From an uncultured Bacillota bacterium (lineage in GTDB: Bacteria; Sysuimicrobiota; Sysuimicrobiia; Sysuimicrobiales; Segetimicrobiaceae), in assembly GCA_963804645.1 (NCBI GenBank), contig CAWDRG010000017.1, positions 768,001 to 832,000 of the forward strand: a DNA stretch of 64,000 nucleotides. The letters are read 5' to 3'. Both the position numbers and the translations under genes were made by a program. Each line of letters begins with the position of its first letter. The stretch's first letter is position 1. Below are positions 2,746 through 38,237 of the stretch, one piece after another. The notes beneath the pieces are model-generated. The model ran no database searches and was not told the DNA's origin. It saw only the letters and a program-made list of their open reading frames with translations.

Positions 2746-2969
2746 ACTCGTCTCCGGCTCCCGAAGCAGTTTCGCCCCGAACGCGCGGTCGCCGGCGTCA
2801 ACACGGTCTTCCCGTTACGTGACGCGGTGTCGCGCGCCGGGTTCCGGTCGGAACGCTCTCGAAGCGACCCGCCGCAAGGTCGATGATGCCATCGAGGAGC
2901 AATCCGTGATCCGCGTATAACGCGGGCCCCAAATCGCGGGATGTGTCGACGAATGTCAGATCGGCCGCG

Positions 2970-4268
2970 TTACTGCCGTACCTGGGTGCGCAGCACCTCG
3001 AGCGCCCGTGATAGGTAGGGCGCCGCTTGAGACGGACGCCTGCACTTGAGCAGGAGGTCGCCGAGCGCATTGGATGCGCGGGCGAGGTCCGCGCGCATGT
3101 GAAGGGCTTCAAACGAGCCGATGGCCACCTTGTACCAGCGAATCGCCTCTGAAGTCTGCCCGCTGGCGTCCCGAAGGCCCGCACGAGCCAGCTCTATCCT
3201 GGCGAGCTCGGTCACGTCCCCGAACCGTTTGGCAAGCCGCTCCGCCTCGTCCAGCGCCTCGTCCGCCTGGTTGAATATGCCTTTAAGAGTCAGCGCACGC
3301 CCCAACTCGGTCAACGTGCGGGCGCGTCCGGGATCGTCGCCGATCTGTTCCTTAATCCGAAGGCTCGCCTCAATATGCTCAATCGCGCCGTCCACCTTCC
3401 CCGCGGCGAGCAGCGTGATTCCGATGCTGTTGTGAGCCCATCCGAGGAACCGCGTATCGTTCAGCGCTTCGAAGAGGTGTTGGGCCCTCGTCAGGTGCTC
3501 AAGCGCCGCGTCGAAGTCACCGCGCTCACGCCGGGCGACGCCCAGTTGGACGTGGACGAGTCCCACGCGATGGAGATCCTCTGCGGACTCCAGCAGGGGC
3601 AGGGCTTGTTGATACCAATGGATTGCGTCCGCATAATCCCCGAGCTCCAGATACGTGTTTCCCAGATTGTACAGCAGCGCCCCGCCGAGGCTGCGGTCGG
3701 GATGGTCGCACAACTGGAAGCGGCGATAGCCTTCGGCGAAGTGTTCGCGTGCCTTCGAGAGATCACGTTTGTAATATTCGATCAGCCCGAGAACGTGATG
3801 CACGCGCACGAGGTGGCGTTCGGTCCCCAGGGCTTCCGCGATCTCCCTGCCGAGTTCGACGTTGTGGCGGGCGAGATCGTATTGTCGCAGACCGGCCAGT
3901 GCGTAGGCCAAGCCGACATAACACTCCGCCTGACTGGCCTTATCCTGCTGCCCGATCGCCAAGGTGAGCGCTTCATTGAACGCCTCGGCGGCTCCGGTGT
4001 AATCGCCCGGCTTCGCCTTGGCCCAGGCCGCCGCAACGTTGACCTGCAACACCTTCGCACTCAACGTCGCGTCGTCATCCAAAATGTACGCGGGCGACAC
4101 CTGCAGGCGCCGCGCGATGAGGACCAAGGTCGCAGGTGACGGCCTGGCGCGCCCAGCTTCGAGTAAACTGACGAATCCTTTGGTCAGATCGCTACCGCCG
4201 AGCTCGGTCTGCGTGAGACCGAGCTCTTTCCGTCTTGCCCGAATGCGTTCACCCAGTGAAGACACCAC
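2970..4268 (-). CDS. XRE-type HTH + tetratricopeptide-repeat transcriptional regulator (RRNPP/NprR/PlcR-like architecture), copy 1
   Basis: N-terminal LGERIRARRKELGLTQTELG..VSLLEAGRARPS is an HTH_3 domain. It is followed by many TPR helices (LLYNLGNTY..A..WYQQAL, AHNSIG..L..GKVDGAIEHIEASL). Confidence 0.88.
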   Translation of the reverse strand: MVSSLGERIRARRKELGLTQTELGGSDLTKGFVSLLEAGRARPSPATLVLIARRLQVSPAYILDDDATLSAKVLQVNVAAAWAKAKPGDYTGAAEAFNEALTLAIGQQDKASQAECYVGLAYALAGLRQYDLARHNVELGREIAEALGTERHLVRVHHVLGLIEYYKRDLSKAREHFAEGYRRFQLCDHPDRSLGGALLYNLGNTYLELGDYADAIHWYQQALPLLESAEDLHRVGLVHVQLGVARRERGDFDAALEHLTRAQHLFEALNDTRFLGWAHNSIGITLLAAGKVDGAIEHIEASLRIKEQIGDDPGRARTLTELGRALTLKGIFNQADEALDEAERLAKRFGDVTELARIELARAGLRDASGQTSEAIRWYKVAIGSFEALHMRADLARASNALGDLLLKCRRPSQAAPYLSRALEVLRTQVRQ

Positions 4269-4381
4269 AGGTCCCCCGATGCGAAACCTACGAGACGCCG
4301 ATGCGCCTCTCGGCGATCCCTTGCCCTGCTTTTTGCAAAGTTTAGTGTATCACCTAGTCTAGATTCCTGCTACTAGAACAG

Positions 4382-4410
4382 CTCAAGCCATCTCAAGCCA
4401 ACCCGAGCCC
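4382..4410. repeat. Short direct repeats with 10-bp period upstream of HTH-TPR regulator 1 (possible operator)
   Basis: CTCAAGCCA at 4382 and 4392, with a degenerate CCCGAGCCC at 4402. Confidence 0.35.
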
Positions 4411-4496
4411 GTCGACGCAATGGAACCCCTGCAAGGACCCAGATCGAGCCCTTGCCTCCGATGAGACCCGGATTCAGTTAGAAGCTTCGCGGCTCG

Positions 4497-5009
4497 CTAA
4501 GCGCCGCCGTTGTCGTCGCCCGCGGGAACCAGCGGCGGCATGCCGTAGACGCTGCTCCCGCCGTTGTCGTCGCCTGCGGGAACCAGCGGCGGCACGCCGT
4601 AGACGCTGCTCCCGCCGTTGTCGTCGCCCGCGGGAACCAGCGGCGGCACGCCGTAGATGCTGCTCCCGCCGTTGTCGTCGCCCGCGGGAACCAGCGGCGG
4701 CACGCCGTAGATGCTGCTCCCGCCGTTGTCGTCGCCCGCAGGAACCAGCGGCGGCACGCCGTAGACGCTGCTCCCGCCGTTGTCGTCGCCCGCAGGAACC
4801 AGCGGCGGCACGCCGTAGACGCTGCTCCCGCCGTTGTCGTCGCCCGCAGGAACCAGCGGCGGCACGCCGTAGACGCTGCTCCCGCCGTTGTCGTCGCCCG
4901 CAGGAACCAACTGTGCGGCGCCCGCCGGAAGACTTGCTGCAAACAGATGAACACCAGACGTGCTGAGAACAAGCGCCCCTACCGCGACAAACATCCATAT
5001 GCGACGCAT
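4497..5009 (-). CDS. Secreted multi-repeat peptide precursor (170 aa): signal peptide + 7 full and 1 partial LVPAGDDNGGSS(V/I)YG(V/M)PP units
   Basis: ATG at 5009 is preceded by an AGGGGGT RBS. MRRIWMFVAVGALVLSTSGVHLFAA is a basic-hydrophobic Sec-type signal. The repeats are in frame and the protein ends LVPAGDDNGGA*. Confidence 0.85.
   Translation of the reverse strand: MRRIWMFVAVGALVLSTSGVHLFAASLPAGAAQLVPAGDDNGGSSVYGVPPLVPAGDDNGGSSVYGVPPLVPAGDDNGGSSVYGVPPLVPAGDDNGGSSIYGVPPLVPAGDDNGGSSIYGVPPLVPAGDDNGGSSVYGVPPLVPAGDDNGGSSVYGMPPLVPAGDDNGGA
4503..4910 (-). repeat. 54-bp tandem repeat array (about 7.5 copies), coding
   Basis: The unit recurs every 54 nt (e.g. ccgttgtcgtcgcc at 4561, 4615, 4669). 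Variation is mostly synonymous (CCT/CCC, GCG/GCA) plus V/I and V/M changes. Confidence 0.97.
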
Positions 5010-5314
5010 AGTACTACACCCCCTATTTTGATTTCTCGAGCACTCGAGTACCAAGCCAGGAAACTTCATGCGAGATCTGATTTCGCGGACTCGAAGCTTT
5101 CACGGACACAAATCTTGATCGCGCCCCACACGAGAAATGGCGTGCTATGGCGCCAAGGTTGCAGTCAATACGTGGCGTACGGTATCGAACAACCGAACGC
5201 CATATGTCCTTATGTACCTATGTACCTCCCTCGCCGAAATTAGACGTCCCCCGTCTAACTAACTGCCCACTGCCCCAGGGACTTAGCCGACGCCCGAGGA
5301 GAAGGGCTGCCGTG

Positions 5315-5435
5315 TGGCTGAAGTTTTATCAACTGCGCCGCACCTTCGCACGTCAACTAATGGAGGTCGGGCCCCCCCATCGCCACCGTACAGCGCCTCT
5401 TTGGCCATGGCAACCTGCAGAGCATCTAGTGGTAT
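5315..5435 (+). pseudogene. Tyrosine recombinase/integrase C-terminal relic
   Basis: WLKFYQLRRTFARQLMEVG, then a +1 shift in the C7 run at 5372-5378, then IATVQRLFGHGNLQSI*WY. This matches the HxLR.TFA..L..G / vq.lLGH....T..Y catalytic boxes, with an in-frame TAG at 5427. Confidence 0.7.
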
Positions 5436-5623
5436 CGGTCCCTGCCAGAGCAATCATCCGCCGCAGCTACGATACGGCGGTAACGCGGTTGCTGGGCACG
5501 ACGACCACGGACCCTGACGCGTGAGCGCAGTCGCCGTACACCGACCCGCGAGGCCAGGCGACGCGCCAAACACCAATCGGGTAAGCGTGCTACGCGTAGC
5601 GCTGGCCGAGGACTGATATTTAG

Positions 5624-5637
5624 TTGACAAACGTCAA
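5624..5637. promoter_or_regulatory. Perfect palindrome TTGAC-N4-GTCAA (candidate transcription-factor site, FNR/CRP-like geometry)
   Basis: ttgacaaacgtcaa in the AT-richer spacer between the divergent peptide gene and the HD-GYP genes. Confidence 0.4.
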
Positions 5638-6196
5638 GAATTGGTGCCGTCTGCGCGCCCTGCACAAAAAGAGACTTAGAAACGGTCCGGCTTGGCCAAC
5701 AGCCCCCCATTGCAGAAAGTTGAGTAGAGCGGTAGACTTGTGAAACAGGTAAACTTGTGGGGGGGAGCCCGCAACTCGTCCTGTAACCTCTGCGGCATTA
5801 GTACGGCCACTAGCGACTTGAAGTGACTAAATCATCGGCAAGGGGGGGACACGGAGGGCACTCAAAACTTCATATCGGGCGGGATCCGAGCGGTACCGGG
5901 CTCGGCGGCATTCCAAGCCGCAACGCCTTTCGCGGACGCCGACGTGCAGTCGACGCGGGAGGCCGAAGACGATGGCTGACGTCCATAACCGTAGCACTGC
6001 CCGACTCAGATCTAGCGCGCACAAACCAACGTAGCCGAGGACACGGTCAGCGGCGCTTACACTGGTGAACGGCAAGTGCGCATGTGCCAAGCAATCGCGG
6101 ACTGCCGGGATGCGTGTAGTAACATGGCAGGCGACGGCGGCAATAGTGATAGGAAGCTATCAACTACCGCTCGGATTCCCGCTCGCCCATGACCAG

Positions 6197-7438
6197 ATGC
6201 GAGTACATTTTCGTGAGCTTCAGGATTCTTTGCAGGCGTTCTGCGTTGTCCTCTGCGCGTTCGCGCTGGCGGCGTCATTTTTGCCCTGCCTCACAGTCAC
6301 CCGCTGATTGTCATCGGACTGGCGGTTATCTTCGCCGCCACATGCCTCGTTAGACCGATACCGAATCCCTCTGGCGGGAGCATTTTTCCGACCAACAGCG
6401 TGAAAATCGTGGCCGCGCTCCTCTGGATGCCGCAGGACGTACTGATCGGTGTCGCATGTGGGGTCGTTTCTTGGGTTGCTCCTCTTCCAAGGAGCGAGAT
6501 CTGGCGAGCGGCGAGTCAATGGTGCTGGATGGGGACTGGCCTCTGCGTCAGCGGCGCTCACGGCCCACCTCGTGCAGGGCGCGATCGAGCCCAGGCCTGG
6601 TGCAATTGACCGCGGCAGCCGTTGCGGCGGTGGTAACGAATCGCGTCATCAACGAAGGGATTTTCTCGATCTACAGATCCTTGCGATTTGGCTTTCCTAT
6701 TTCTGCCGACTTGGCGCCAAAACGTGCTCGACCAGTGGATGAGTCAGCTTCTTGCCGCGCCGATGGGGATCGTACTGGCGGCAGCGGCCGGTCGACTCGC
6801 AGCCACGTGGTCCTCCCTGGCGCTAACGGCCGTGTCCGCGCTGGCGTTACCTGATTCCACGCCAGGAGCTGGCCTATTACCATCGTGCCCAGGAAGCCGT
6901 GGCCGAAGTCGTCGAGGCGGTCGTCCGCGCACTGGAAGGGATCGATCAGAATACGCGGGCGCACGGTGACCGGGTCAGCCAGCTCGCGGGGGCGGTCGGA
7001 CAGCGTCTGCGGATGCCGGAGGCGGACCTCCGGGCCCTTCGCTTGGCGGCGCGTCTGCACGACGTCGGCTTCCTGGCGGGACCCGACGGGTCGGCGCCCA
7101 ACGACCACCACGCGGTCGCCGGCAGCCGGATCCTCGCCCAGTCGCCGGATCCGCTGATCGCAAGAATCGTACGGGCTCATCACGAACGGTGGGACGGCAC
7201 CGGAGTCCCGGACCGAACCGCCGGGCAGGCGATCCCTCTCGGTGCACGGGTCATCGCAGCAGTGGAAATCTACGATGAGGTCTGCTTCGGGATCGGCGAG
7301 GGCGGCAGCACCATGCCGCCCACCGACGCGCTCGGGCGCGTCCGCGGACTGGCCGGCACCGCGCTCGATCCGCAGGTCGTCAGCGCGCTCATCAGCGTCG
7401 TCGAGGAACAGGAACTCCAGGCCGCGGTGACGCGGTGA
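6197..7438 (+). pseudogene. Membrane-anchored HD-GYP-domain protein, interrupted by about 7 single-base frameshifts (probably assembly errors; about 412 aa when repaired)
   Basis: Hydrophobic segments chain across frames: MRVHF..AFALA/GVIFALPHSHPLIVIGLAVIF..PIPNPSGGSIFPTNSVKIVAALLW..VA/VGSFLGLLLF../VNGAGWGL../GLVQLTAAAVAAVVTNRVINEG../FLPTWRQNVLDQW../IPRQELAYYHRAQEAVAEVVEA. They lead into an HD-GYP domain (TRAHG, LHDVG, HHERWDGTGVP, LDPQVV). Shifts lie near 6271, 6457, 6490, 6514, 6593, 6699 and 6853. Confidence 0.75.
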
Positions 7439-10041
7439 GCTTGAACGGGGCCGGGATGCGCGCGTCAGCCTCCGCGCTCCCGTTGTTCGTTTGGTTCCTC
7501 GTCGCGGCCGCACTCGGCTCCCTCATCGCGGGGCTGCGCGCGATGGTGGTCGGGCAGATCCCTGAAACACTCGTGATCGCGATTACCATCGCGATCCTCG
7601 ATCTGTATCCGATCTACCTCGATCCCACGGGTGAAATCCCGCTGACCCCCGTCATCACCGTGGGGGCGGTGGTGCTGTTTGGGTGGGCGCCGACGATCGT
7701 CGGCGCCGCTGTCGGCACGCTCTTCGGGCTGTTCAGGCACCCCGCGCGGGAGGTCGTGGTCAACGGCAGCATCCGGCTCGGCGCGCTCATCGCTGCCGCC
7801 GGTCTCGCCAGCGTCGCGCCCGCGATGGGTTCGAACCGCGATGTGAGCGCGGTGATCGCGGTGCTCTATGCCGGCGCCGGGTACTGGGCGGCGTCTGTGT
7901 TCCTGTCCGCGGCCCGCCTGTGTACCGAAGACGCGGTCACGTGGCAGCGTGCCGTCAGATTCCAGCTGGCGGCCACGACGTTCCACCTGGCCGTGTTCAC
8001 CCTCGCGGCCGCCGTCGCGGTGTGGGTGATCAGCAACGATCCGTCGCGGATCGACCTCCTGCTCGTCCCTCCGCTCGCCGCCACGTTGGTGCTCCAGCTC
8101 TACCTGCCTCGAATTCTGCGCGGCGAACAACAGCGCCGCGCGCTCTCCTCGGTGTCGGTGCTCGCGGCCGCGGTCGACGCCAAAGACCCGTATACTGCCA
8201 ACCACTCGGCCGCGGTGGCCGAACTGTCCCGGCGCGTCGCGAGAGTGCTCGACCTCGACGAGCCCGACGTGCACCGCGTCTACCTCACCGGGCTGCTCCA
8301 CGACGTCGGCAAGACCGTCGTGCCGCCGGAGATTCTCCTGAAAACCGGAAAGCTGACGGAGGACGAATGGCAGGTAATGCGCTCGCACGTCGAGGCCGGC
8401 GTTCGGATCGTCCAGTCGATTGGCGGGCTGGCGGAGATCGCCCCATTCGTCGGGGCCAGCCACGAGCGCCTCGACGGGGCCGGCTACCCGGCGGGCCTGG
8501 CCGGCAACGCCATTCCCCTGAGCTCCCGCATCAATCTCGTGGTCGACGCGTACAACGCGCTGACGACGAACCGCCCCTACCGCCCGGCCCGTCCGCCTGA
8601 GGCGGCGCTCCGCGAGCTCGAAGCGCACACGGGAACGCAGTTCGACCCGCGGGTGGTCACGGCGATCCGCACCGCCCTCGGATTGAGCCGGGCGCTTCCT
8701 CCGCAGCGCGACGCGCCGGATCCGCGGGTGGTCGCGACGCTTCGTACCGCGCTCGGGCTCAAGCGCGCCCCCGAAACGCGCGAGGACGCACCAAACGCGT
8801 TGACGTTGTTCCGGCAGCCGGCATTCGCGCTCCTGTGGATCGGGCAACTCGTGAGCTTCCTCGGCGATGAAGTTTTCTTCATCGCCCTATCGCTCTGGGT
8901 CTACCGGCTCACCGGATCCGCGACGATCCTCGCGGTCGCGCTGATCGCCGCGACCGTGGGCCAAGGCCTGCTGGGACTGCTGGCCGGCGCGCTCGCGGAC
9001 CGGATGGACCGTCGCGGAGTCATGATCGCCGCTGACCTCGGGCGGGCGGTCCTCGTGGGCATGCTCCCCTTTGTCATTCTCCGGTCGCTGCCCCTAGGAT
9101 TCCTCGTCCTCGTGGTGTTGAGTGTCGGCACCGTGTTCTTTCGCGCCGCGGTCTACGGGTTGATCCCGTCGATCGTCACGCGAGCGCTCCTCCCGTCTGG
9201 CAATGCGCTGTTGCAGACGACCGAGCGCGTCGCCGAGATCGTCGGCGGGGTGTTGGGGGGGGTGATTGTGCTCACGCTCGGCTACGTCGCGGTGTTCTAT
9301 CTGGACGCCCTGAGCTTTCTCGTGAGCGCGGTGTGCATCGGCCTGATGCCGGTGGCATGGCGGGCGGGTCTCGCCGCGACCGGCCCCAAACACATCGCCA
9401 CGGACATTAAAGAAGGCCTCGACTACATCCGACACACGCCGCTGCACTGGGCGCTGGCACTCTTGATTATCCCAGGGTACCTCACGCTCGCGTTTACCGG
9501 TCTCAGAGCGCCGATGATCATCAAGGCGGCGGCGCTGCCGGCGGTCGCCTACGGCGTCGTCAACAGTGTGATCGGGGTCGGCAAGCTTGTGTCCGCGCTG
9601 TCGCTGGCCGCGATCCCGCGCGGCTGGAGCAACGTGTCGTTCGTGGTCGGATCGTTCCTCCTGACGGCGCTCGGGATCCTGCTGTTCGGCGCCACCACGT
9701 CGTACTCGGTGCTCCTCATGGGGGCGTTCCTGTTCGGCGCCGGAAATATCGCCTCGAACATCGCCAACGCGTCCATTTCCCTGTCCAACACGCCGTCCGG
9801 GATCGTGGGCCGACTGATGTCCAGCCGACAGGTCTTCATCGCCGGCACCACGCTGGTCGGCATGTTGATCTTCGGCAGGCTGGCCGACGTCGCCGGCCCG
9901 CCGTTCGCGCTCGTGATGCTGGGAGCCGTCTCGGCCGGGGGCGTGCTGATCGTGTGGTTCACCATCGGCCGCCGGGTCGCTCCGCCAACCTCTCAGGACG
10001 TGCCTCGCAGCGTCACCGTGCCGTCCCAGCGCAACGCATAG
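7435..10041 (+). CDS. Three-part fusion: N-terminal multi-TM domain + HD-GYP phosphodiesterase domain + C-terminal MFS transporter (868 aa)
   Basis: GTGA overlap with the upstream gene. HD-GYP motifs: DPYTANHS, LLHDVGK, GKLTEDEW, HERLDGAGYP, RPYR, GTQFDP. MFS motifs: FALLWIGQLVSFLGD, GALADRMDRRGVMIAADLGR, FYLDALSFLVSA, DIKEGLDYI. One uninterrupted ORF. Confidence 0.9.
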   Translation: MSLNGAGMRASASALPLFVWFLVAAALGSLIAGLRAMVVGQIPETLVIAITIAILDLYPIYLDPTGEIPLTPVITVGAVVLFGWAPTIVGAAVGTLFGLFRHPAREVVVNGSIRLGALIAAAGLASVAPAMGSNRDVSAVIAVLYAGAGYWAASVFLSAARLCTEDAVTWQRAVRFQLAATTFHLAVFTLAAAVAVWVISNDPSRIDLLLVPPLAATLVLQLYLPRILRGEQQRRALSSVSVLAAAVDAKDPYTANHSAAVAELSRRVARVLDLDEPDVHRVYLTGLLHDVGKTVVPPEILLKTGKLTEDEWQVMRSHVEAGVRIVQSIGGLAEIAPFVGASHERLDGAGYPAGLAGNAIPLSSRINLVVDAYNALTTNRPYRPARPPEAALRELEAHTGTQFDPRVVTAIRTALGLSRALPPQRDAPDPRVVATLRTALGLKRAPETREDAPNALTLFRQPAFALLWIGQLVSFLGDEVFFIALSLWVYRLTGSATILAVALIAATVGQGLLGLLAGALADRMDRRGVMIAADLGRAVLVGMLPFVILRSLPLGFLVLVVLSVGTVFFRAAVYGLIPSIVTRALLPSGNALLQTTERVAEIVGGVLGGVIVLTLGYVAVFYLDALSFLVSAVCIGLMPVAWRAGLAATGPKHIATDIKEGLDYIRHTPLHWALALLIIPGYLTLAFTGLRAPMIIKAAALPAVAYGVVNSVIGVGKLVSALSLAAIPRGWSNVSFVVGSFLLTALGILLFGATTSYSVLLMGAFLFGAGNIASNIANASISLSNTPSGIVGRLMSSRQVFIAGTTLVGMLIFGRLADVAGPPFALVMLGAVSAGGVLIVWFTIGRRVAPPTSQDVPRSVTVPSQRNA
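8644..8793 (+). repeat. Diverged 75-bp (25-aa) tandem duplication at the HD-GYP/MFS junction
   Basis: DPRVVTAIRTALGLSRALPPQRDAP followed by DPRVVATLRTALGLKRAPETREDAP. Confidence 0.85.
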
Positions 10042-10237: not shown

Positions 10238-11998
10238 ATGAGATCCGATCGAACGCTCGCCTGCATGCTCGTCGTCCTGCTCATTGTCCTCGTCGCGGGC
10301 GCCGCGGCCAGCGGGGCCGGAGCGCCCGTGAACAATCCGGGCACGTTCGTCACCGAGCGCCTGGCGGATCCGCAGAGCCTCGATCCCGCCTACGCGTACG
10401 ATACCGCGAGCGAAGAGATCATCTACCCCAACGTCTACGAGACCCTGATCGGGTACGACGGCAGCGTCCTGTCCCACTATGTGCCGGTGCTGGCTGCCCA
10501 AGTGCCGAGCGTGGGCAATCACCTGATCACGCCGGACGGGCTCACGTACACGTTCCCGATCCGCGCCGGGGTGCGGTTTCACGACGGGTCCGTGATGACT
10601 CCCGAGGACGTGCGCTATTCGATCTTGCGCTTCATGCTGCAGGACCGCGACGGCGGCCCGTCGTGGCTGCTGCTCACGCCCCTGCTCGGGACCGAGAGCA
10701 CGCGCGACGCCAAGGGCAACATCGCCGTGACGTACGCGCAGGCCGCCAAGGCCGTAACGGTCGAGGGGCACAACGTGGTCTTCCACCTCGCCCATCCGTA
10801 CGGCGCGTTTCTGAGCATCATGGCGGCGTGGTCGTTTGTCCTCCCGCGCGCGTGGGCCGCGGCGCACGGTGACTGGGACGGCAGCCCGGCGACGTGGCAG
10901 CGCTACAACAACCCGAAGCTCCAGGACCGCTACGCGTTCGACCATATGAACGGCACCGGGCCGTTCCTGCTGCAGCAGTGGGACCGGCAGGCCAAGCAGA
11001 TCATTCTGGTCCGGAACCCGCAGTACTGGCGCGCGCCGGCCCGGTTGTCGCAGGTCGTGATCCGCACCGTCCCCGAGTTTGGGACGCGCCGCCTCGAGCT
11101 CCAGCGCGGCGACGCCGACCTCATCGACGTCCTGCGCCCGGATCAGCCCCAGGTGGCGGGACTGGACGGCGTGACGATCCGTGACGGCCTTCCGCAGCTG
11201 GCGCTGCTGGCCCTCGACTTCAACCTGCAGATCGACCCCACCGCCAATCCCGATATCGGCAGCGGGAAGCTTGATGGGAACGGGATCCCGCCGGACTTCT
11301 TCAGCGACGTCCACGTCCGCCAGGCGTTCGCGTACGCGTTCGACTACGGGACGTTCATCCGGGACGGATACCGGGGGGACGCGGTCCAGCCGAACGGCCC
11401 CATCATCCAGGGCCTGCTCGGATACGATGCGTCGATGCCGCGGTACACGTTCGACCGGCAGAAGGCGATCGCGGAGTTCAAGGAGGCGTGGGGCGGGAAG
11501 CTGTGGGACGTAGGGTTCCGCTTCACCGAAACGTACAACACCGGCAATGTGATCCGTCAGGTCGCCGCGCAGATCCTCAAGGACGAGGTCGAGTCGCTCA
11601 ACCCGAAGTTCCGGATCGACATCCGCGATCTCGCTTGGTCGTCGTTCCTCCAGATGGTCGGCCAGCATCGGGGCACGCTGTACGGCATGGCCTGGACGGT
11701 CGACTATCCCGATCCCGACGACTTCGCACAGCCGTTCATGGCGAGCAACGGTTCCTACCCGAAGCGGGACGGCTTCAGCGATCCCGCCGCGGACCAGCTG
11801 GTCGCGGAGGCGGCGGCCATGTCCGATCCCGCCAAGCGCGCGGCGATCTACCAGCAGCTGTCCAAGCTCTCGTACACCGACGCGCCCAGCATCTACATCG
11901 CGCAGCCGACCGGGTTCGCGGTGATGCGGACGTGGGTCCGCGGATGGTACTACAACCCGGTGATCGTGCAGGACTACGGCCCGCTGTTCAAGCAGTAG
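10238..11998 (+). CDS. ABC transporter substrate-binding protein, family 5 (OppA/DppA-like)
   Basis: Signal peptide; SLDPAYAYD, VYETLI, DGLTYTF.IR.GVRFHDG, GTGPF, W..DYPDPD. Confidence 0.93.
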   Translation: MRSDRTLACMLVVLLIVLVAGAAASGAGAPVNNPGTFVTERLADPQSLDPAYAYDTASEEIIYPNVYETLIGYDGSVLSHYVPVLAAQVPSVGNHLITPDGLTYTFPIRAGVRFHDGSVMTPEDVRYSILRFMLQDRDGGPSWLLLTPLLGTESTRDAKGNIAVTYAQAAKAVTVEGHNVVFHLAHPYGAFLSIMAAWSFVLPRAWAAAHGDWDGSPATWQRYNNPKLQDRYAFDHMNGTGPFLLQQWDRQAKQIILVRNPQYWRAPARLSQVVIRTVPEFGTRRLELQRGDADLIDVLRPDQPQVAGLDGVTIRDGLPQLALLALDFNLQIDPTANPDIGSGKLDGNGIPPDFFSDVHVRQAFAYAFDYGTFIRDGYRGDAVQPNGPIIQGLLGYDASMPRYTFDRQKAIAEFKEAWGGKLWDVGFRFTETYNTGNVIRQVAAQILKDEVESLNPKFRIDIRDLAWSSFLQMVGQHRGTLYGMAWTVDYPDPDDFAQPFMASNGSYPKRDGFSDPAADQLVAEAAAMSDPAKRAAIYQQLSKLSYTDAPSIYIAQPTGFAVMRTWVRGWYYNPVIVQDYGPLFKQ

Positions 11999-12055: not shown

Positions 12056-13387
12056 CTAGCGGGGCGAGTCGGCGCGCAGCACCTCAAGCGCCCGCGAGAG
12101 ATACGGCGCGGCCTGCGACGCGCGGCCGTGTTTCAGGAGTAGATCGCCGAGCGCGTTGCACGCGTTCGCGACGTCCGCCTGCATCCCAAGCGCGGTGAAT
12201 CCGTCGATCGCCTGCTTGTAGCAGCGAATCGCCTCCGGCATCCGGCCGGTCGCCGCCCGGAGCTGGGCGCGGGCGGCCTGAATGCGGGCGCCCTCGGTGA
12301 CATCCTTGAACCGGTCGGTCAGCCGCTCGGCCTCGTCAAGCAGCGCATCCGCCGAGGCGAACTCGCCTTTTGCGATCATGGCGCGTCCCAATTCTGTGAG
12401 CGACCGTGCCCGCCCGGGGTCGTCGCCGGTCTCCGCCTTGATCCGGAGACTCGCCTCGATGTGCGCGATCGCGTCGTCGACCTTCCCCTCAGCCAAGAGC
12501 GTGATCCCGATGCTGTTGTGGGCCCATCCGAGCAGCCGCCGGTCTTCGAGCACCTCGAACACGTGCTCCGCCCGGTTCAGATGCGCCAGCGCCGCGTCGT
12601 AGTGCCCTCGCTCGCGCTCGGCCACTCCGAGCTGGACGTGCACCAGACCGAGCCGGTGCATGTCCCCGGTCGACTCCAGCAGGGCCATCGCCCGCTCGTA
12701 CCAGCGGGCGGCCTCCACGTGGTCGCCCATCTCCATGTGCGTGTTGCCGATGTTGTACAGTAGAATGCCGCCGAACCCGCGATCCGGGTGATCGAACTCT
12801 TCGAACCGGCGGTACGCCTCGGCAAAATGCCCGCGCGCCTCAAGCAGGCGGCGCTCCTGGTACGCGATCATGCCGAGCACGTGGTGGATGCGCACGAGGT
12901 GATGCGAGGCCCCGGCCGTCTCGGCAAGGTCCCGCCCGCGCTCCACGTTCCGACGGGCCAAGTCATGCTGCCGGAGACCCGCGAGCGCCGTCGCGAGCCC
13001 GATGCAGCATTCGGCCTCGAGGGCTGGATCGTCGTCCCCCGCGGCCAGCGCGAGCGCCTCGTTGAACGCCTCGGCGGCGCCGGTATAATCGCCCTGCTTG
13101 ACCTTGACCCAGCCCGCGGCCACGGTGACGCGAACCGCTTTGGCCCCGAGGGTCGTGCCTCGCTCCAGAAAATAGCCGACGGGCCTCTGCAGGCGGCCGG
13201 CGAGCACGCCCAGGGTGTCCAGCGACGGCTTCGCGCGGCCTTTTTCGATCAGGCTGATGAACGCTTTGCTGACGTCAGCGCCGCCGAGTTGGGTCTGAGT
13301 CAGGCCCAACTCCTTCCGTCGGGTCCGAATGCGTTCCCCCAAGGAAGACAACGTCGATCCCCCGGTCTCGCGTCGGTGCGCGCCCAT
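12056..13387 (-). CDS. XRE-type HTH + TPR regulator (RRNPP-like), copy 2, paralog of 2970-4268
   Basis: LGERIRTRRKELGLTQTQLGG. Shares GDYTGAAEAFNEAL, LGWAHNSIGITLLA, HIEASLRIK, GDDPGRAR and SQAAPYLSRALEVLR with copy 1. Start could be the TTG about 11 codons downstream. Confidence 0.88.
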   Translation of the reverse strand: MGAHRRETGGSTLSSLGERIRTRRKELGLTQTQLGGADVSKAFISLIEKGRAKPSLDTLGVLAGRLQRPVGYFLERGTTLGAKAVRVTVAAGWVKVKQGDYTGAAEAFNEALALAAGDDDPALEAECCIGLATALAGLRQHDLARRNVERGRDLAETAGASHHLVRIHHVLGMIAYQERRLLEARGHFAEAYRRFEEFDHPDRGFGGILLYNIGNTHMEMGDHVEAARWYERAMALLESTGDMHRLGLVHVQLGVAERERGHYDAALAHLNRAEHVFEVLEDRRLLGWAHNSIGITLLAEGKVDDAIAHIEASLRIKAETGDDPGRARSLTELGRAMIAKGEFASADALLDEAERLTDRFKDVTEGARIQAARAQLRAATGRMPEAIRCYKQAIDGFTALGMQADVANACNALGDLLLKHGRASQAAPYLSRALEVLRADSPR

Positions 13388-23560: not shown

Positions 23561-25162
23561 ATGGCCAAGCACACGCGCACGCAGGCGGGACGGACGACGC
23601 GGCGGGGGTTTCTCACAACGGTCGCGGCCGCCGGCATCGGCGCGGCGTCATCCGCGTGGCTCGCTACGGCAGGCCCCGCGGGGGCGCTCGCGGCAGCTCC
23701 GATGCGCCGAGGCGGCACGCTCAAGATCGCCGAGATCGGTGAGCCGTTGACGCTCGACATCCCGTCCACCACGGCGGGGCTCACGACCAATCTCACCCTG
23801 CCGGTGTTCGAAGAGCTGTTCGCGTTCGACGCCAGCTGGCGGATCCAGCCGTCGCTGGCGGCCGGGTACAGCGTCAGCAAGGACGGGATGACGTATACGT
23901 TTACCCTGCGCAGCAACGTCCCGTTCCACAACGGCAAGATCATGACCGCGGACGACGTGGTCGCGTCCCTGAACCGCTGGGGCAAGGTCAGCCCGTACGG
24001 GGCGGTCCCGTACAAGTCGGTCGAGTCGGTGACCGCCGCCGGCAACACGGTGGTCATGAAACTCACCGCGCCGTCCGCGCCGCTGCTCGCGTTTCTGACG
24101 TTTCCCGTGGGGGCCGCCGCGATCATGCCGAAGGAAGTCATCGATGCGGCCGGGACGGGACCCCTCAAGCAGTTCATCGGGACGGGACCCTATAAGTTCG
24201 TGGAATGGGCGCCGGACCGATACGTCCACCACACTCGGTTCGATCAATATGCGGCGCGCTCGGAACCCGGGAACGGCATGGCGGGCCGGAAGGATGCCCT
24301 GGCGGACGACCTCTTCTACTACCCCGTCTCGCAGGTCGCGACCCGGCTCGCGGGCGTCCAGAGCGGCGACTACGACATCGCGGATCAGATCAATACCGAC
24401 GCGTACGCCCAGCTGAAGCAGGATCCGCGGGTCCAACCGGGCGTCGTGCCCGGCACGTTCCTCACGTTCTTCTTCAATAAACGCCAAGGCGTGATGACGA
24501 ATGAGAAGCTGCGCCAGGCCGTCGCCGTGGCCATGGACATGCAGCCAATTATGGAAGCGACGTTCGGCAACCCCGACCTCTTCACGATCGACTCGAGCAT
24601 CTACCCCAAGGGCACGCCGTGGTATACGAACGCGGGCGGCACCTGGTACAACGTCCACAACACGGACCAGGCGAAACAGCTGGCCAAGGAGGCCGGGTAC
24701 TCGGGACAGCCGATCCGGTGGCTGTCGACGCAGGAGTACGACTACATGTTCAAGAGCACGGTCGTCGCCTCGACACAGCTCAAGGAGGCCGGCTTCAACG
24801 TGGACCTGCAGGTCGTGGAGTGGGCAACGCTGCTCGACCGCCGCGCCAAGGCGGACGAGTGGGACATGTTCGTGACGTCGCACTCGTTCGTCCCCGACCC
24901 GTCCCTGATCACCGTGTTCAGCTCCGCGTACCCCGGATGGTGGGACACCCAGACGAAAAACGCGCTGTTCGCGCAGTTCAACGCGGAGTCGGATCCGAAG
25001 AAGCGCATCCAGCTGTGGGCCAAGCTGCAGACGTTGATGTACCAGGAGGAGCCGATCGTGCGGCCCGGCGGATTCAGCGCCCTGCTGCTGAGCCGTAGGG
25101 GGCTGCCCGGGTTTCAGCCGTCGGCCTGGATCGTGCCGTGGAACGTGCAGGCGGTCAAATAG
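23561..25162 (+). CDS. Family-5 ABC substrate-binding protein with Tat signal
   Basis: TTRRGFL twin-arginine signal; RGGTLKI, PLTLD, DGMTYTF.LR, IGTGPYKF. Confidence 0.93.
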   Translation: MAKHTRTQAGRTTRRGFLTTVAAAGIGAASSAWLATAGPAGALAAAPMRRGGTLKIAEIGEPLTLDIPSTTAGLTTNLTLPVFEELFAFDASWRIQPSLAAGYSVSKDGMTYTFTLRSNVPFHNGKIMTADDVVASLNRWGKVSPYGAVPYKSVESVTAAGNTVVMKLTAPSAPLLAFLTFPVGAAAIMPKEVIDAAGTGPLKQFIGTGPYKFVEWAPDRYVHHTRFDQYAARSEPGNGMAGRKDALADDLFYYPVSQVATRLAGVQSGDYDIADQINTDAYAQLKQDPRVQPGVVPGTFLTFFFNKRQGVMTNEKLRQAVAVAMDMQPIMEATFGNPDLFTIDSSIYPKGTPWYTNAGGTWYNVHNTDQAKQLAKEAGYSGQPIRWLSTQEYDYMFKSTVVASTQLKEAGFNVDLQVVEWATLLDRRAKADEWDMFVTSHSFVPDPSLITVFSSAYPGWWDTQTKNALFAQFNAESDPKKRIQLWAKLQTLMYQEEPIVRPGGFSALLLSRRGLPGFQPSAWIVPWNVQAVK

Positions 25163-36637: not shown

Positions 36638-38237
36638 ATGCGCACGCCTTCGGCGAATCAGCGCGGCGCGATCGCGACGCTCGCGGTCGCCGCAATGCTG
36701 GCCATCAGCGTCGTCGTCGTTCCGGGCTCCGTCACCGGATGGGCCGCAGAACCGGTGACGTTCATTTGGGGCAAGACCGGGGATGCGGAGACGCTGGACC
36801 AGCCGCTCAGCGCGGACGCGGAAACCGCCCAGGTCAACGCGCAAATGTTCAACACCCTCGTGCGGATGACACCGGGGCAGAGGGACATCGAACCCGACCT
36901 TGCCACGAGCTGGTCGGTCTCACCCGATGGGCTGATGTGGACGTTCAAGCTGCGGCGGGGTGTCGCGTTCCAAGACGGCACGCCGTGGAACGCCGCGGCC
37001 GCCGTCTTCAACATCAATCGGTGGGCCGACGCAACAAACCCGTATCACGTGGTCACGGGGCACGACTACTTTTACTGGAACTCCTTCATGGCGGGGGCGT
37101 TTCGGGAAGCGCGCGCCCCCGACCCGTACACGCTTAGAGATCGTCCTGACCAAACCCGACGCGCCGCTCGTCTACAACCTCTCCATTCTCGGGTTTGATT
37201 TCACGAGCCCGGCGGCCATCATGAAGTACGGGGCCCAGGGCCTGGGCCAGCACCCCGTCGGTACGGGGGCGTTCAAGTTCGTCGAATGGGTCCGCGACGA
37301 CCACGTCACGATGGTGGCAAACCCGTCGTACTTCCGCAAGGGACTGCCCAAGAGCCAACGCCTCATCATGCGTGTGATCAAGGACAACGCGGCGCGGTTC
37401 CTCGCGCTCAAGGCCGGTGAGATCCAGGCGATGGAGCTGCCGAACCCCGACGACGTCAAGACCGCCGCAGCCGACCCGACTCTCGCCGTGACGTACCGGC
37501 CGCCGTTCAACGTCGGCTGGCTCCGATTCAATATGAACGACCCGCTGTTCAAGGATAAGCGGATGCGAGAGGCCGTCGCGCTCGCGATCAACCGGAAGGC
37601 GATCGTGGACGCGCTCTACGGCGGGTACGGCACCGTCGCGGACCAGCACCTCCCGCCCGGCGTCTGGGGACGCGCGGACGTCACGGGCTACCCGTACGAC
37701 CCCGCGATGGCAAAGCAGCTGCTCGCCGAGGCTGGGTACCCGAACGGGTTCTCGTTCGACCTCTGGTACATCCCGGTGAGCCGCGCGTACTTCCCGAACG
37801 GCAAAGACATCGGGACGGCGATCGCGAGCGATCTCGGGAAGGTTGGCATCCGGGCGCACCTCCAAACCGAAGACTGGGTCGCGTACTTGAAGGACATTCG
37901 CAGCAACAAGTTCCAGGTGGACATGGTCGGGTGGAACGGACCCACCGCCGACCCCGACGATTGGCTCGGGTTCCTCTTCTCCGGGTACGATCCGACCAAC
38001 GGGTACCTGTCCTACAACAACCCCACGGTGTTCGACCTGATCGCCAAGGCCAGGGTCGCCACGAACCAGGCCGCGCGCGCGCGCATGTACGCGCAGGCCG
38101 AAACCATCATCCTCAATGACTACCGCGACGTCCCCATCGCGCACGCGAAGGTGCCGATCCTGCTCCGCAAGAACGTCGAGGGCCTTGCGGGCCAGGCGAA
38201 CGGCGTCGAGTACATGGAAACGGTCTGGCTGCGCTAG
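36638..38237 (+). CDS. Family-5 (DppA-like) ABC substrate-binding protein; +1 frameshift at about 37136
   Basis: Signal peptide, PDLATSW.VSPDGL.WTFKLR.GV.FQDG, then PVGTGAFKF, GYPNGF, RAYFPN. Removing A37136 joins DPYTL/EIVL. Confidence 0.9.

Follow-up and report, generated by a model that had tools for sequence, protein, structure and literature searches.

Why would a bacterium encode the same short acidic peptide eight times over in one putatively exported protein? The question is raised by a gene in a 64,000-nucleotide stretch of DNA from an uncultured Bacillota bacterium (positions 768,001 to 832,000 of contig CAWDRG010000017.1; hereafter the window), whose product combines a signal-like N-terminus with eight copies of a core reading LVPAGDDNGG. 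Because these eight peptide copies stand beside a regulator of the peptide-sensing type, the most likely answer is a precursor that supplies a cell-to-cell signal in multiple doses. We think it probable that the locus holds a pro-pheromone of the RRNPP type together with its receptor, a cytoplasmic tetratricopeptide repeat (TPR) protein, and that the pheromone has been amplified by tandem duplication. The precursor-receptor pair constitutes an undescribed family in uncultured Bacillota.

The repeat array and the adjacent regulator

Tandem Repeats Finder places the array at 4504-4909, with a period of 54, 7.5 copies, 98% matches, no indels and a score of 756, which is far beyond chance. Five nucleotide sites vary among the seven full units. 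Three of these are synonymous and fall in core codons (Leu TTG/CTG, Pro CCT/CCC and Ala GCG/GCA), the Pro codon forming two blocks, CCT in units 1-4 and CCC in the four copies after them; the two non-synonymous sites lie in the spacer, at codon 13 (V/I, with Ile in two adjacent units) and codon 16 (V/M, with Met in unit 7), and no amino-acid change between units touches the core (codons 1-10).

The N-terminus of the precursor consists of MRR (the n-region), 13 uncharged hydrophobic residues and a stretch of small residues. We judged it to be a putative Sec signal from these features and from 15 homologous N-termini, since the same layout of K/R, hydrophobic segment and AxA is common to the precursors of all relatives, several of which have a clear AxA, such as SQANA/S. 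The precursor N-terminus contains no Cys and hence no lipobox, and inspection of the whole sequence revealed neither a lipobox nor an LPXTG anchor motif. The Shine-Dalgarno-like element before the start codon recurs in the closest relative (G004, below), and an in-frame ATG further upstream, at 5069, has no ribosome-binding site. Two further long open reading frames (ORFs) that overlap the precursor DNA in the ORF list are by-products of the repeat, as the ribosome-binding site, signal-like start and homologues are found in the 170-residue frame only. Searched against its own genome, the precursor matched only itself. An earlier, sequence-only reading of this DNA had described a Sec-type start, seven units and a terminal LVPAGDDNGGA, with synonymous variants in blocks and amino-acid changes confined to SSxYGxPP, and the ORF list, repeat detection and unit-by-unit listing agree with it on each of these points; its view of the gene as a secreted multi-copy peptide precursor also appears sound.

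That reading had further suggested a signalling role while missing the neighbour that now lends the idea substance: directly downstream, in conserved synteny, lies a gene for a helix-turn-helix (HTH) and TPR regulator with a Rap/NprR-like predicted fold. The regulator gene starts 228 bp after the precursor stop, on the same strand, and its product matches the Pfam families HTH_3 (2.4e-10), TPR_12 (4.9e-31) and TPR_MalT (2.5e-24). A confident AlphaFold2 model built with 32 homologues (mean predicted local distance difference test score, pLDDT, 91.8; predicted template modelling score, pTM, 0.77) opens with an HTH domain of five helices, which a short stretch of low confidence links to 18 helices in regular pairs. 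Foldseek ranked generic TPR proteins (LGN) first by E-value, and the top TM-scores belonged to Rap (4gyo, 0.66/0.78). On re-alignment with VIA-align, the first nine places all went to Rap or NprR structures, at Z 29.7-33.6 with 338-356 residues aligned. They included RapJ with CSF (4gyo; Z 33.6, 348 residues, root-mean-square deviation 3.8), the Rap proteins of phages phi3T and phi105 with their pheromones (8rsv, 8rst and 8rte; Z 31.2-33.5), RapF with PhrF (Z 32.6), apo NprR (5dbk; Z 30.2) and RapI (Z 29.7). NprR-NprX (4gpk) aligned at Z 28.2, the two NprR structures covering 343-352 residues, and AimR reached a Z of about 25. A predicted complex between the TPR part of the receptor (residues 66-431, 32-row alignment) and the last 35 precursor residues scored 0.02 against a mark of 0.32 and weighs neither way.

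RRNPP propeptides leave the cell by Sec or by PptAB. In the mechanism that we propose, the 170-residue product would be exported by Sec and lose its signal peptide, as its N-terminal features suggest. Cleavage of the Pro-rich spacers by extracellular proteases would set free as many as eight short acidic GDDNGG peptides, probably with part of LVPA attached. One of the many Opp/Dpp-type permeases present in the genome may then import the peptide. Its binding in the TPR groove of the neighbouring HTH-TPR protein would alter transcription, a step to which the architecture, fold and conserved synteny of the regulator point. The genome contains 59 OppC_N permease matches above cut-off, and its peptide-uptake repertoire is unusually large. 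More cores should yield more peptide per translated precursor, the 'chatterer' idea of the literature, and copy number might in this way tune the quorum threshold.

Table 1 Features of the precursor-receptor locus and the paralogous receptor in the window.
Feature	Position	Strand	Description	Basis
Precursor gene	4497..5009	(-)	170 aa and stop: signal-like N-terminus, 7 full units, terminal core	ORF list and sequence
Shine-Dalgarno-like GGGGGTG	5017..5023	(-)	7 nt before ATG 5009	Read from sequence
Putative Sec signal and pro-region, residues 1-33	4911..5009	(-)	MRR, hydrophobic core, small-residue c-region, short linker ending AGAAQ	
Seven 54-bp units	4533..4910	(-)	Each LVPAGDDNGGSS(V/I)YG(V/M)PP	Tandem Repeats Finder and unit-by-unit listing
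Terminal eighth core	4500..4532	(-)	LVPAGDDNGGA, then TAG stop 4497-4499	Unit listing
Putative cognate receptor	2970..4268	(-)	HTH_3 at residues 9-62 and about nine TPR pairs, 431-432 aa	
Paralogous receptor	12056..13387	(-)	67% identity; probable TTG start 13351; no adjacent precursor gene	

Relatives, copy number and the conserved block

A search with the precursor matched 17 of 61 genomes at E <= 1, counting the window's own (G000), and these include all six other genomes of the genus (G001-G006); in all seven the precursor lies directly upstream of the regulator. The number of cores is one in G005 (GDDNGPGAVLGIPPLVPQ with the tail IHEDGV), two in G002, three each in G006 and G001 (the latter with a 19-residue unit), five in G003 (a precursor of about 135-150 residues), eight in the window and 13 in G004, where the unit reads LVPAGDDNGGST[V][F/Y]GVPP and the C-terminus is again LVPAGDDNGGA. 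A series of 1, 2, 3, 3, 5, 8 and 13 within one genus bears out the recent stepwise tandem expansion that had been read from the window alone. The G004 array also resembles that of the window in its variation, with four variable core sites, all synonymous, and amino-acid changes in codons 12 and 14. Two adjacent 55-bp units in it (L011:1870-1979) shift the frame twice, reading AGCACGCGTC where others have AGCACGGTC or AGCAGCGTC. They stem either from a consensus error in the repeat or from decay, and have more the look of two unit variants merged into one consensus than of a biological feature.

Metagenomic proteins extend the series; copy numbers taken from short-read assemblies may be collapsed. 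Among 1.84 billion representative proteins the precursor found 47 matches at E <= 0.001, of which eight were read (seven and P0004) and 39 left out. P0001 has three copies of GDDNGGASVYGVPPLVPQ; P0003 and P0006 carry two and one of GDDNGGATVYGIPPLVPQ between identical flanks, one unit apart; and P0004 has two units against three in G006, again with identical flanks. More distantly, P0008 contains GDDNGSMSTYGLPPLVPQ and ends in GDDNGSM, while P0037 has three copies of GGDGSGS, with DIQSTPPIVPF as spacer and the core (GGDGSGS) at its end. These two, and perhaps P0042, look related among the matches read; P0007, P0020, P0047 and P0051 were rejected as unrelated low-complexity repeats. A search of a 5.8-billion-protein set gave one match of near-equal length, four in the shorter set and none in the longer-protein set, the last being weak evidence.

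Multi-copy precursors are confined to the genus clade of the regulator tree. Outside the genus the precursors are single-copy proteins of 51-59 residues that have a clear signal and end in the core, variants of which include LVPAGDDHGGSG and LQPAGDDNGGSH; their C-termini read ...ILVPAGDDHGGSG, ...VLVPAGDDPGGH, ...IIPLGDDAGGSH, ...HLVAAGDDNPAGG, ...HLVADGDVNGAGG, ...SLQPAGDDNGGSH and ...PLEPAGDDNDGSH. The precursor of G011 ends in WLVPPLEPAGDDNDGSH, in which the PPLxPA lead-in is already there, and the SSVYG spacer segment is absent from every single-copy precursor of other genera. On this comparison the functional block was ancestrally the C-terminus itself, [LI]-x-[PA]-x-G-D-[DV]-x-x-G-x-x; the spacer came with tandem duplication inside the genus. 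The ancestral state is thus a single-copy precursor of 51-59 residues ending in the core, and tandem duplication of the block gave the 1-13 cores seen in the genus. The idea that LVPAGDDNGG is the block that matters gains from these relatives, which end in it without SSxYG, and from the purely synonymous core substitutions in the arrays. Peptide variants differ in having A or Q before the core, and GGSS, GGST, GPGA, GGAS, GGAT or GSMS after it.

The regulator is more widespread than the multi-copy precursor, being present in all 23 genomes of the family in one to four copies each. Of the regulator loci that the family search returned, 30 in all, half (15) have a precursor gene next to them, divergently oriented in one case (G009). 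In a quick maximum-likelihood tree of 32 regulators, the second receptor of the window is sister to the precursor-linked one, with a Shimodaira-Hasegawa-like approximate likelihood-ratio test (SH-aLRT) value of 97. G004 carries the same set of one precursor-linked and one precursor-less receptor, and the receptor duplication is thus specific to the G000/G004 lineage. One copy kept the precursor gene, with its A-type GGSS/GGST peptide, while the other has none, and the latter is possibly a second or an orphan receptor.

An alignment of the 100 nt upstream of the precursors at 15 loci showed that 10 or 11 of them, from five genera, share a non-coding block (AAGTAA..GAATAC, 2-3 nt, GCCGTTCGGCGG, 1-2 nt, CTAAAC) about 15-45 nt before the ribosome-binding site, which is probably a promoter with an operator. 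The window and G004 do not have this block and carry a near-palindrome, TCGAGTGCTCGA, at the equivalent place (5036-5047 in the window); the presumed recognition helix reads FVSLLEAGRA in their receptor versus FISLVEKGRA in the others. In the window, GCCGTTCGGCGG shows no enrichment (3.65 matches expected, 5 observed) and does not occur close to the precursor gene; the near-palindrome is not repeated to a significant degree. An inverted-repeat scan gave nothing compelling, a promoter and terminator scan of 2800-7000 stayed at shuffle level, the 239-nt spacer that separates precursor and regulator folds unremarkably (z = -1.37), and an Rfam scan of the window returned two tRNAs only, far from the precursor.

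Cultured Tumebacillus and Thermoactinomycetaceae have distant homologues of the regulator that match it over its full length at 23-26% identity. In Tumebacillus the regulator is followed at both loci, after 18 nt, by a Pro/Thr-rich ORF of 68-81 residues that bears a signal (L055:4308-4514 (+) and L058:4308-4553 (+)), and this order, with the small ORF downstream, is the canonical one of Bacillales. Cultured Tumebacillus species could offer a tractable model for the wider regulator family.

Weighing the readings

Several observations weigh against a pheromone and its receptor. The organism is known from metagenome bins alone, and the copy number of eight comes from a single assembly. No curated RRNPP subfamily matches the regulator sequence, for which Pfam and NCBIfam yield generic TPR and HTH models only. 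Among the matches listed from a PDB profile search with the regulator (60 of 118), designed TPRs and LGN scored far better than the best RRNPP protein, a Rap at 7e-08, and no NprR chain appeared. The modelled fold is also like that of eukaryotic LGN, whose Z of 29.3 lies just below the Rap/NprR set; given this modest margin, the model supports a peptide receptor without proving one. The gene order, with the precursor upstream on the same strand, departs from that of Bacillales, where the pheromone gene lies downstream.

The peptide itself raises further difficulties. Among members of the genus, G-x-PP-LVP in the spacer is no less invariant than GDDNG, so that sequence does not delimit the active peptide. 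The case that the sequence-only reading named as a refutation, homologues that keep the spacer and not the core, is contradicted by the precursors of other genera; inside the genus the two are equally conserved. Five genus genomes have a degenerate terminal copy, LVPQ followed by SQEHGT, SFGQGH, NQGHGT, ITGTTS or IHEDGV, and a last copy decayed to LVPQ and six unrelated residues is found in three metagenomic proteins as well. In this sister clade, with its Q-type peptide, the internal copies must therefore be the active ones, cut on both sides. Its Gln in the -1 position (LVPQ/GDDNG) also makes it unlikely that release after V-P-A in the manner of a signal peptidase, as the sequence-only reading had it, is a general rule.

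Half of the regulator loci (15 of 30) have no adjacent precursor. These are the two loci of the second paralogue (G000 and G004), one partial locus (L138) and twelve loci that form a single clade beside tRNA-Thr(GGT) and tuf (L128-L132, L134-L136, L141, L142, L144 and L145). ARAGORN found the tRNA-Thr(GGT) in all 11 loci of this clade submitted to it, the twelfth (L135) having only 39 nt upstream, and the contigs stop in a tuf-like GTPase gene, as read by eye. We considered arrays hidden, unassembled, at the contig breaks of precursor-less loci, and rejected this explanation as the contigs run through the tRNA-Thr(GGT) into the tuf-like gene. The tRNA-Thr-side regulators may be 'eavesdropper' receptors at a conserved chromosomal site.

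It is unlikely, though a chance to be reckoned with, that the gene is real while its eight units are a product of assembly, the true array being shorter, longer or polymorphic. Logan contigs from 4 of 24 listed runs, two from DNA and two from RNA libraries, were compared with the locus. The DNA contigs come from related, non-identical strains and break inside the array into pieces of 83-84 nt, so that no public contig bridges it; two contigs from peat metatranscriptome libraries, in which DNA can occur, match 3953-4166, inside the regulator, at 100% identity. The frame-breaking 55-bp units of G004, the closest relative, resemble a consensus error, the neighbouring HD-GYP gene, intact in G004, is broken up over several frames in the window, so that indel errors in this assembly are possible, and metagenomic proteins with identical flanks differ by one unit (P0004/G006 and P0006/P0003). 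Set against this, the window array stays in frame throughout, its ordered variants (CCT four times and then CCC four times; adjacent Ile units) would hardly be expected from a collapsed or scrambled assembly, and the genome is assembled in 22 contigs for 5.3 Mb.

The remaining rivals concern what the product does. Multi-core precursors are typical of some classes of ribosomally synthesized and post-translationally modified peptides (RiPPs), and the locus might accordingly encode a secreted peptide without a signalling role, either RiPP-like, an unmodified antimicrobial or metal-binding, with the TPR protein as controller or scaffold; we regard this as improbable. The hints in its favour are a weak generic TPR match of the regulator to the NCBIfam model 'cyclophane-containing RiPP biosynthesis TPR protein' (55.7 bits, cut-off 1125) and a match of the MFS part of the divergent gene to 'ryptide export MFS' (22 bits, cut-off 575), both far under their cut-offs. 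Pfam matches within about 7 kb, in the window and five relatives, revealed no radical-SAM, YcaO, lanthipeptide or C39-exporter genes and no leader peptidase or dedicated exporter beside the pair, so that no modifying enzyme, peptidase or exporter accompanies it as in multi-core RiPP loci; the HTH-TPR protein is the sole conserved partner. The precursor has a Sec-like signal instead of a leader peptide, and its core carries, to our knowledge, no Cys, Ser/Thr-Cys or aromatic pattern of known RiPP chemistries. About equally improbable is a product that stays intact and serves as a repeat protein rich in Pro, Gly and Asp, for instance as a spacer that binds cations or is associated with the wall, which the regulator merely controls or has nothing to do with. 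The whole 18-residue unit, beyond the core, is conserved within the genus, and the acidic DDN motif could bind cations, but GDDNGG, by eye, does not fit the calcium-loop pattern DxDxDG. Once the signal is removed, single-copy relatives would keep some 25-30 residues, which is too little for a structural repeat protein; a range of 1 to 13 cores in close relatives is hard to fit with a fixed structural role; and an anchor motif (LPXTG or lipobox) is missing.

Beyond the pheromone-receptor pair as such, a wider proposal is possible, and we put it forward tentatively: the loci may form an undescribed RRNPP subfamily confined to an uncultured family of high-G+C soil Bacillota, with an acidic, Gly-rich pheromone (core GDDxGG) whose dosage evolves fast by gain and loss of 54-bp units. 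It would embrace the 1 to 13 cores in one genus and the one-unit differences between near-identical alleles, as well as the peptide-less second receptor from duplication and the second peptide-less receptor clade beside tRNA-Thr. If true, the subfamily would provide a natural series for relating copy number to quorum threshold and for studying the origin of new 'languages'.

In the window, the pair is flanked on one side by fumarase genes and on the other by a lower-G+C spacer of about 1 kb, a divergent membrane HD-GYP/major facilitator superfamily (MFS) gene and then a gene for a family-5 solute-binding protein. In G004 the HD-GYP gene is one ORF of 1294 residues (L029:4535-8416 (-)) in which a membrane domain with HD-GYP occurs twice in succession, followed by an MFS_3 transporter. 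The first 420 or so residues of this protein are split in the window over the (+) frames 6065-6307, 6400-6609, 6456-6854, 6688-6969 and 6899-7438, followed by an intact ORF of 868 residues (7435-10041); the split reflects either frameshifts in a decaying gene or assembly indel errors. Three stand-alone genes for family-5 solute-binding proteins lie in the window, at 10238-11998, 23561-25162 and 36960-38237. In the Q-type genomes G001, G002, G003, G005 and G006 (L030-L033 and L035), a phosphoesterase-like gene follows the regulator on the same strand, though it was not seen in G006, and further downstream are a Cu_amine_oxidN1-AMIN-Amidase_3 cell-wall amidase, a divergent polysaccharide deacetylase and an M17 aminopeptidase. 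These downstream genes are candidate targets of the regulator.

Comparison with known systems

Almost all that is known of peptide signalling through cytoplasmic TPR receptors comes from Bacilli, from a few Clostridia and from the phages of both. The present locus would extend it to uncultured Bacillota of soil and peat; its receptor family is named by no curated model, and its putative pheromone differs from the known types. In PMC10075063, RRNPP pairs are defined as a TPR receptor of 250-500 residues next to a small propeptide exported by Sec. The window pair resembles these in its TPR receptor of 431-432 residues and in the adjacent gene for a peptide with a putative signal, 228 bp away on the same strand, an adjacency kept in all six other genus genomes and in 15 of 30 family loci. 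It differs in that the window precursor, at 170 residues because of its repeats, exceeds the default propeptide size of RRNPP_detector (10-100 residues, a setting of the tool), into which its single-copy relatives of 51-59 residues fit. A default run would miss both the window locus and G003 on account of this limit, and detectors that restrict propeptides to 100 residues will in practice miss such loci.

Large multi-copy propeptides are an accepted form. PMC9765709 describes them for AimR, NprR, PlcR and Rap, in which one propeptide may hold as many as six identical copies; repeats are present in each of the 17 NprR-associated propeptides of atypically large size that it examined. PMC11343458 states that as many as 8 copies have been reported. 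The remark that eight copies are unusually many was therefore roughly right, with the qualification that such numbers are already in print. Both papers discuss pheromone dosage and quorum threshold, PMC11343458 treating copy number as a means to raise the pheromone:receptor ratio, and the literature has examined the dosage hypothesis for two-copy Phr peptides only. The graded natural series of 1, 2, 3, 5, 8 and 13 cores on homologous precursors, together with single-copy out-groups, is material for this 'chatterer' or dosage hypothesis.

Among individual systems, NprR-NprX of the Bacillus cereus group is close in architecture, having an XRE-type HTH followed by about nine TPRs in about 420-430 residues, and a small Sec-type propeptide encoded by the adjacent gene. 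Sequence searches, in contrast, give no match at family level, and identity in the structural alignment is 13%. The window precursor gene lies upstream of its receptor, whereas nprX is downstream of nprR, as is the rule for pheromone genes of Bacillales systems (PMC9765709); the window peptide is acidic and Gly-rich, unlike NprX, and its host belongs to an uncultured high-G+C lineage of Bacillota. Structurally, the TPR domain is matched best by Rap proteins (Z 31.2-33.6), among them those of phages phi3T and phi105, whose Rap-Phr systems have tandem pheromones. The propeptides of these systems, as described in PMC11343458, likewise have several internal and C-terminal pheromone copies joined by short spacers; for two phage Phr peptides, extracellular proteases release the internal as well as the terminal copies, and both kinds are active. 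Rap proteins begin with a three-helix bundle and act on protein partners, the response regulators, and phr lies downstream of rap. They also have no HTH (PMC9765709), unlike the window receptor with its HTH_3 domain. Two copies were studied in those phage systems (PMC11343458), compared with eight in the window and 13 in G004, on 18-residue units with a conserved spacer.

The kind of system, an RRNPP pair, and the multi-copy propeptide trick are thus known and in print. What is new is the receptor and peptide family, which has no curated model and only few relatives in the set of 1.84 billion representative proteins; the acidic Gly-rich core, the lineage and a gene order that puts the precursor first; and the unit size with its conserved spacer and the range of copy numbers, which extends to 13 if the G004 array is real. 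Outside the bacteria, yeast alpha-factor and animal prohormones follow the same plan of one exported precursor that holds several identical signal peptides, with spacers cut by proteases. They differ in being eukaryotic, processed in the secretory pathway and sensed by a surface receptor, and they have no evolutionary relation to the system in the window.

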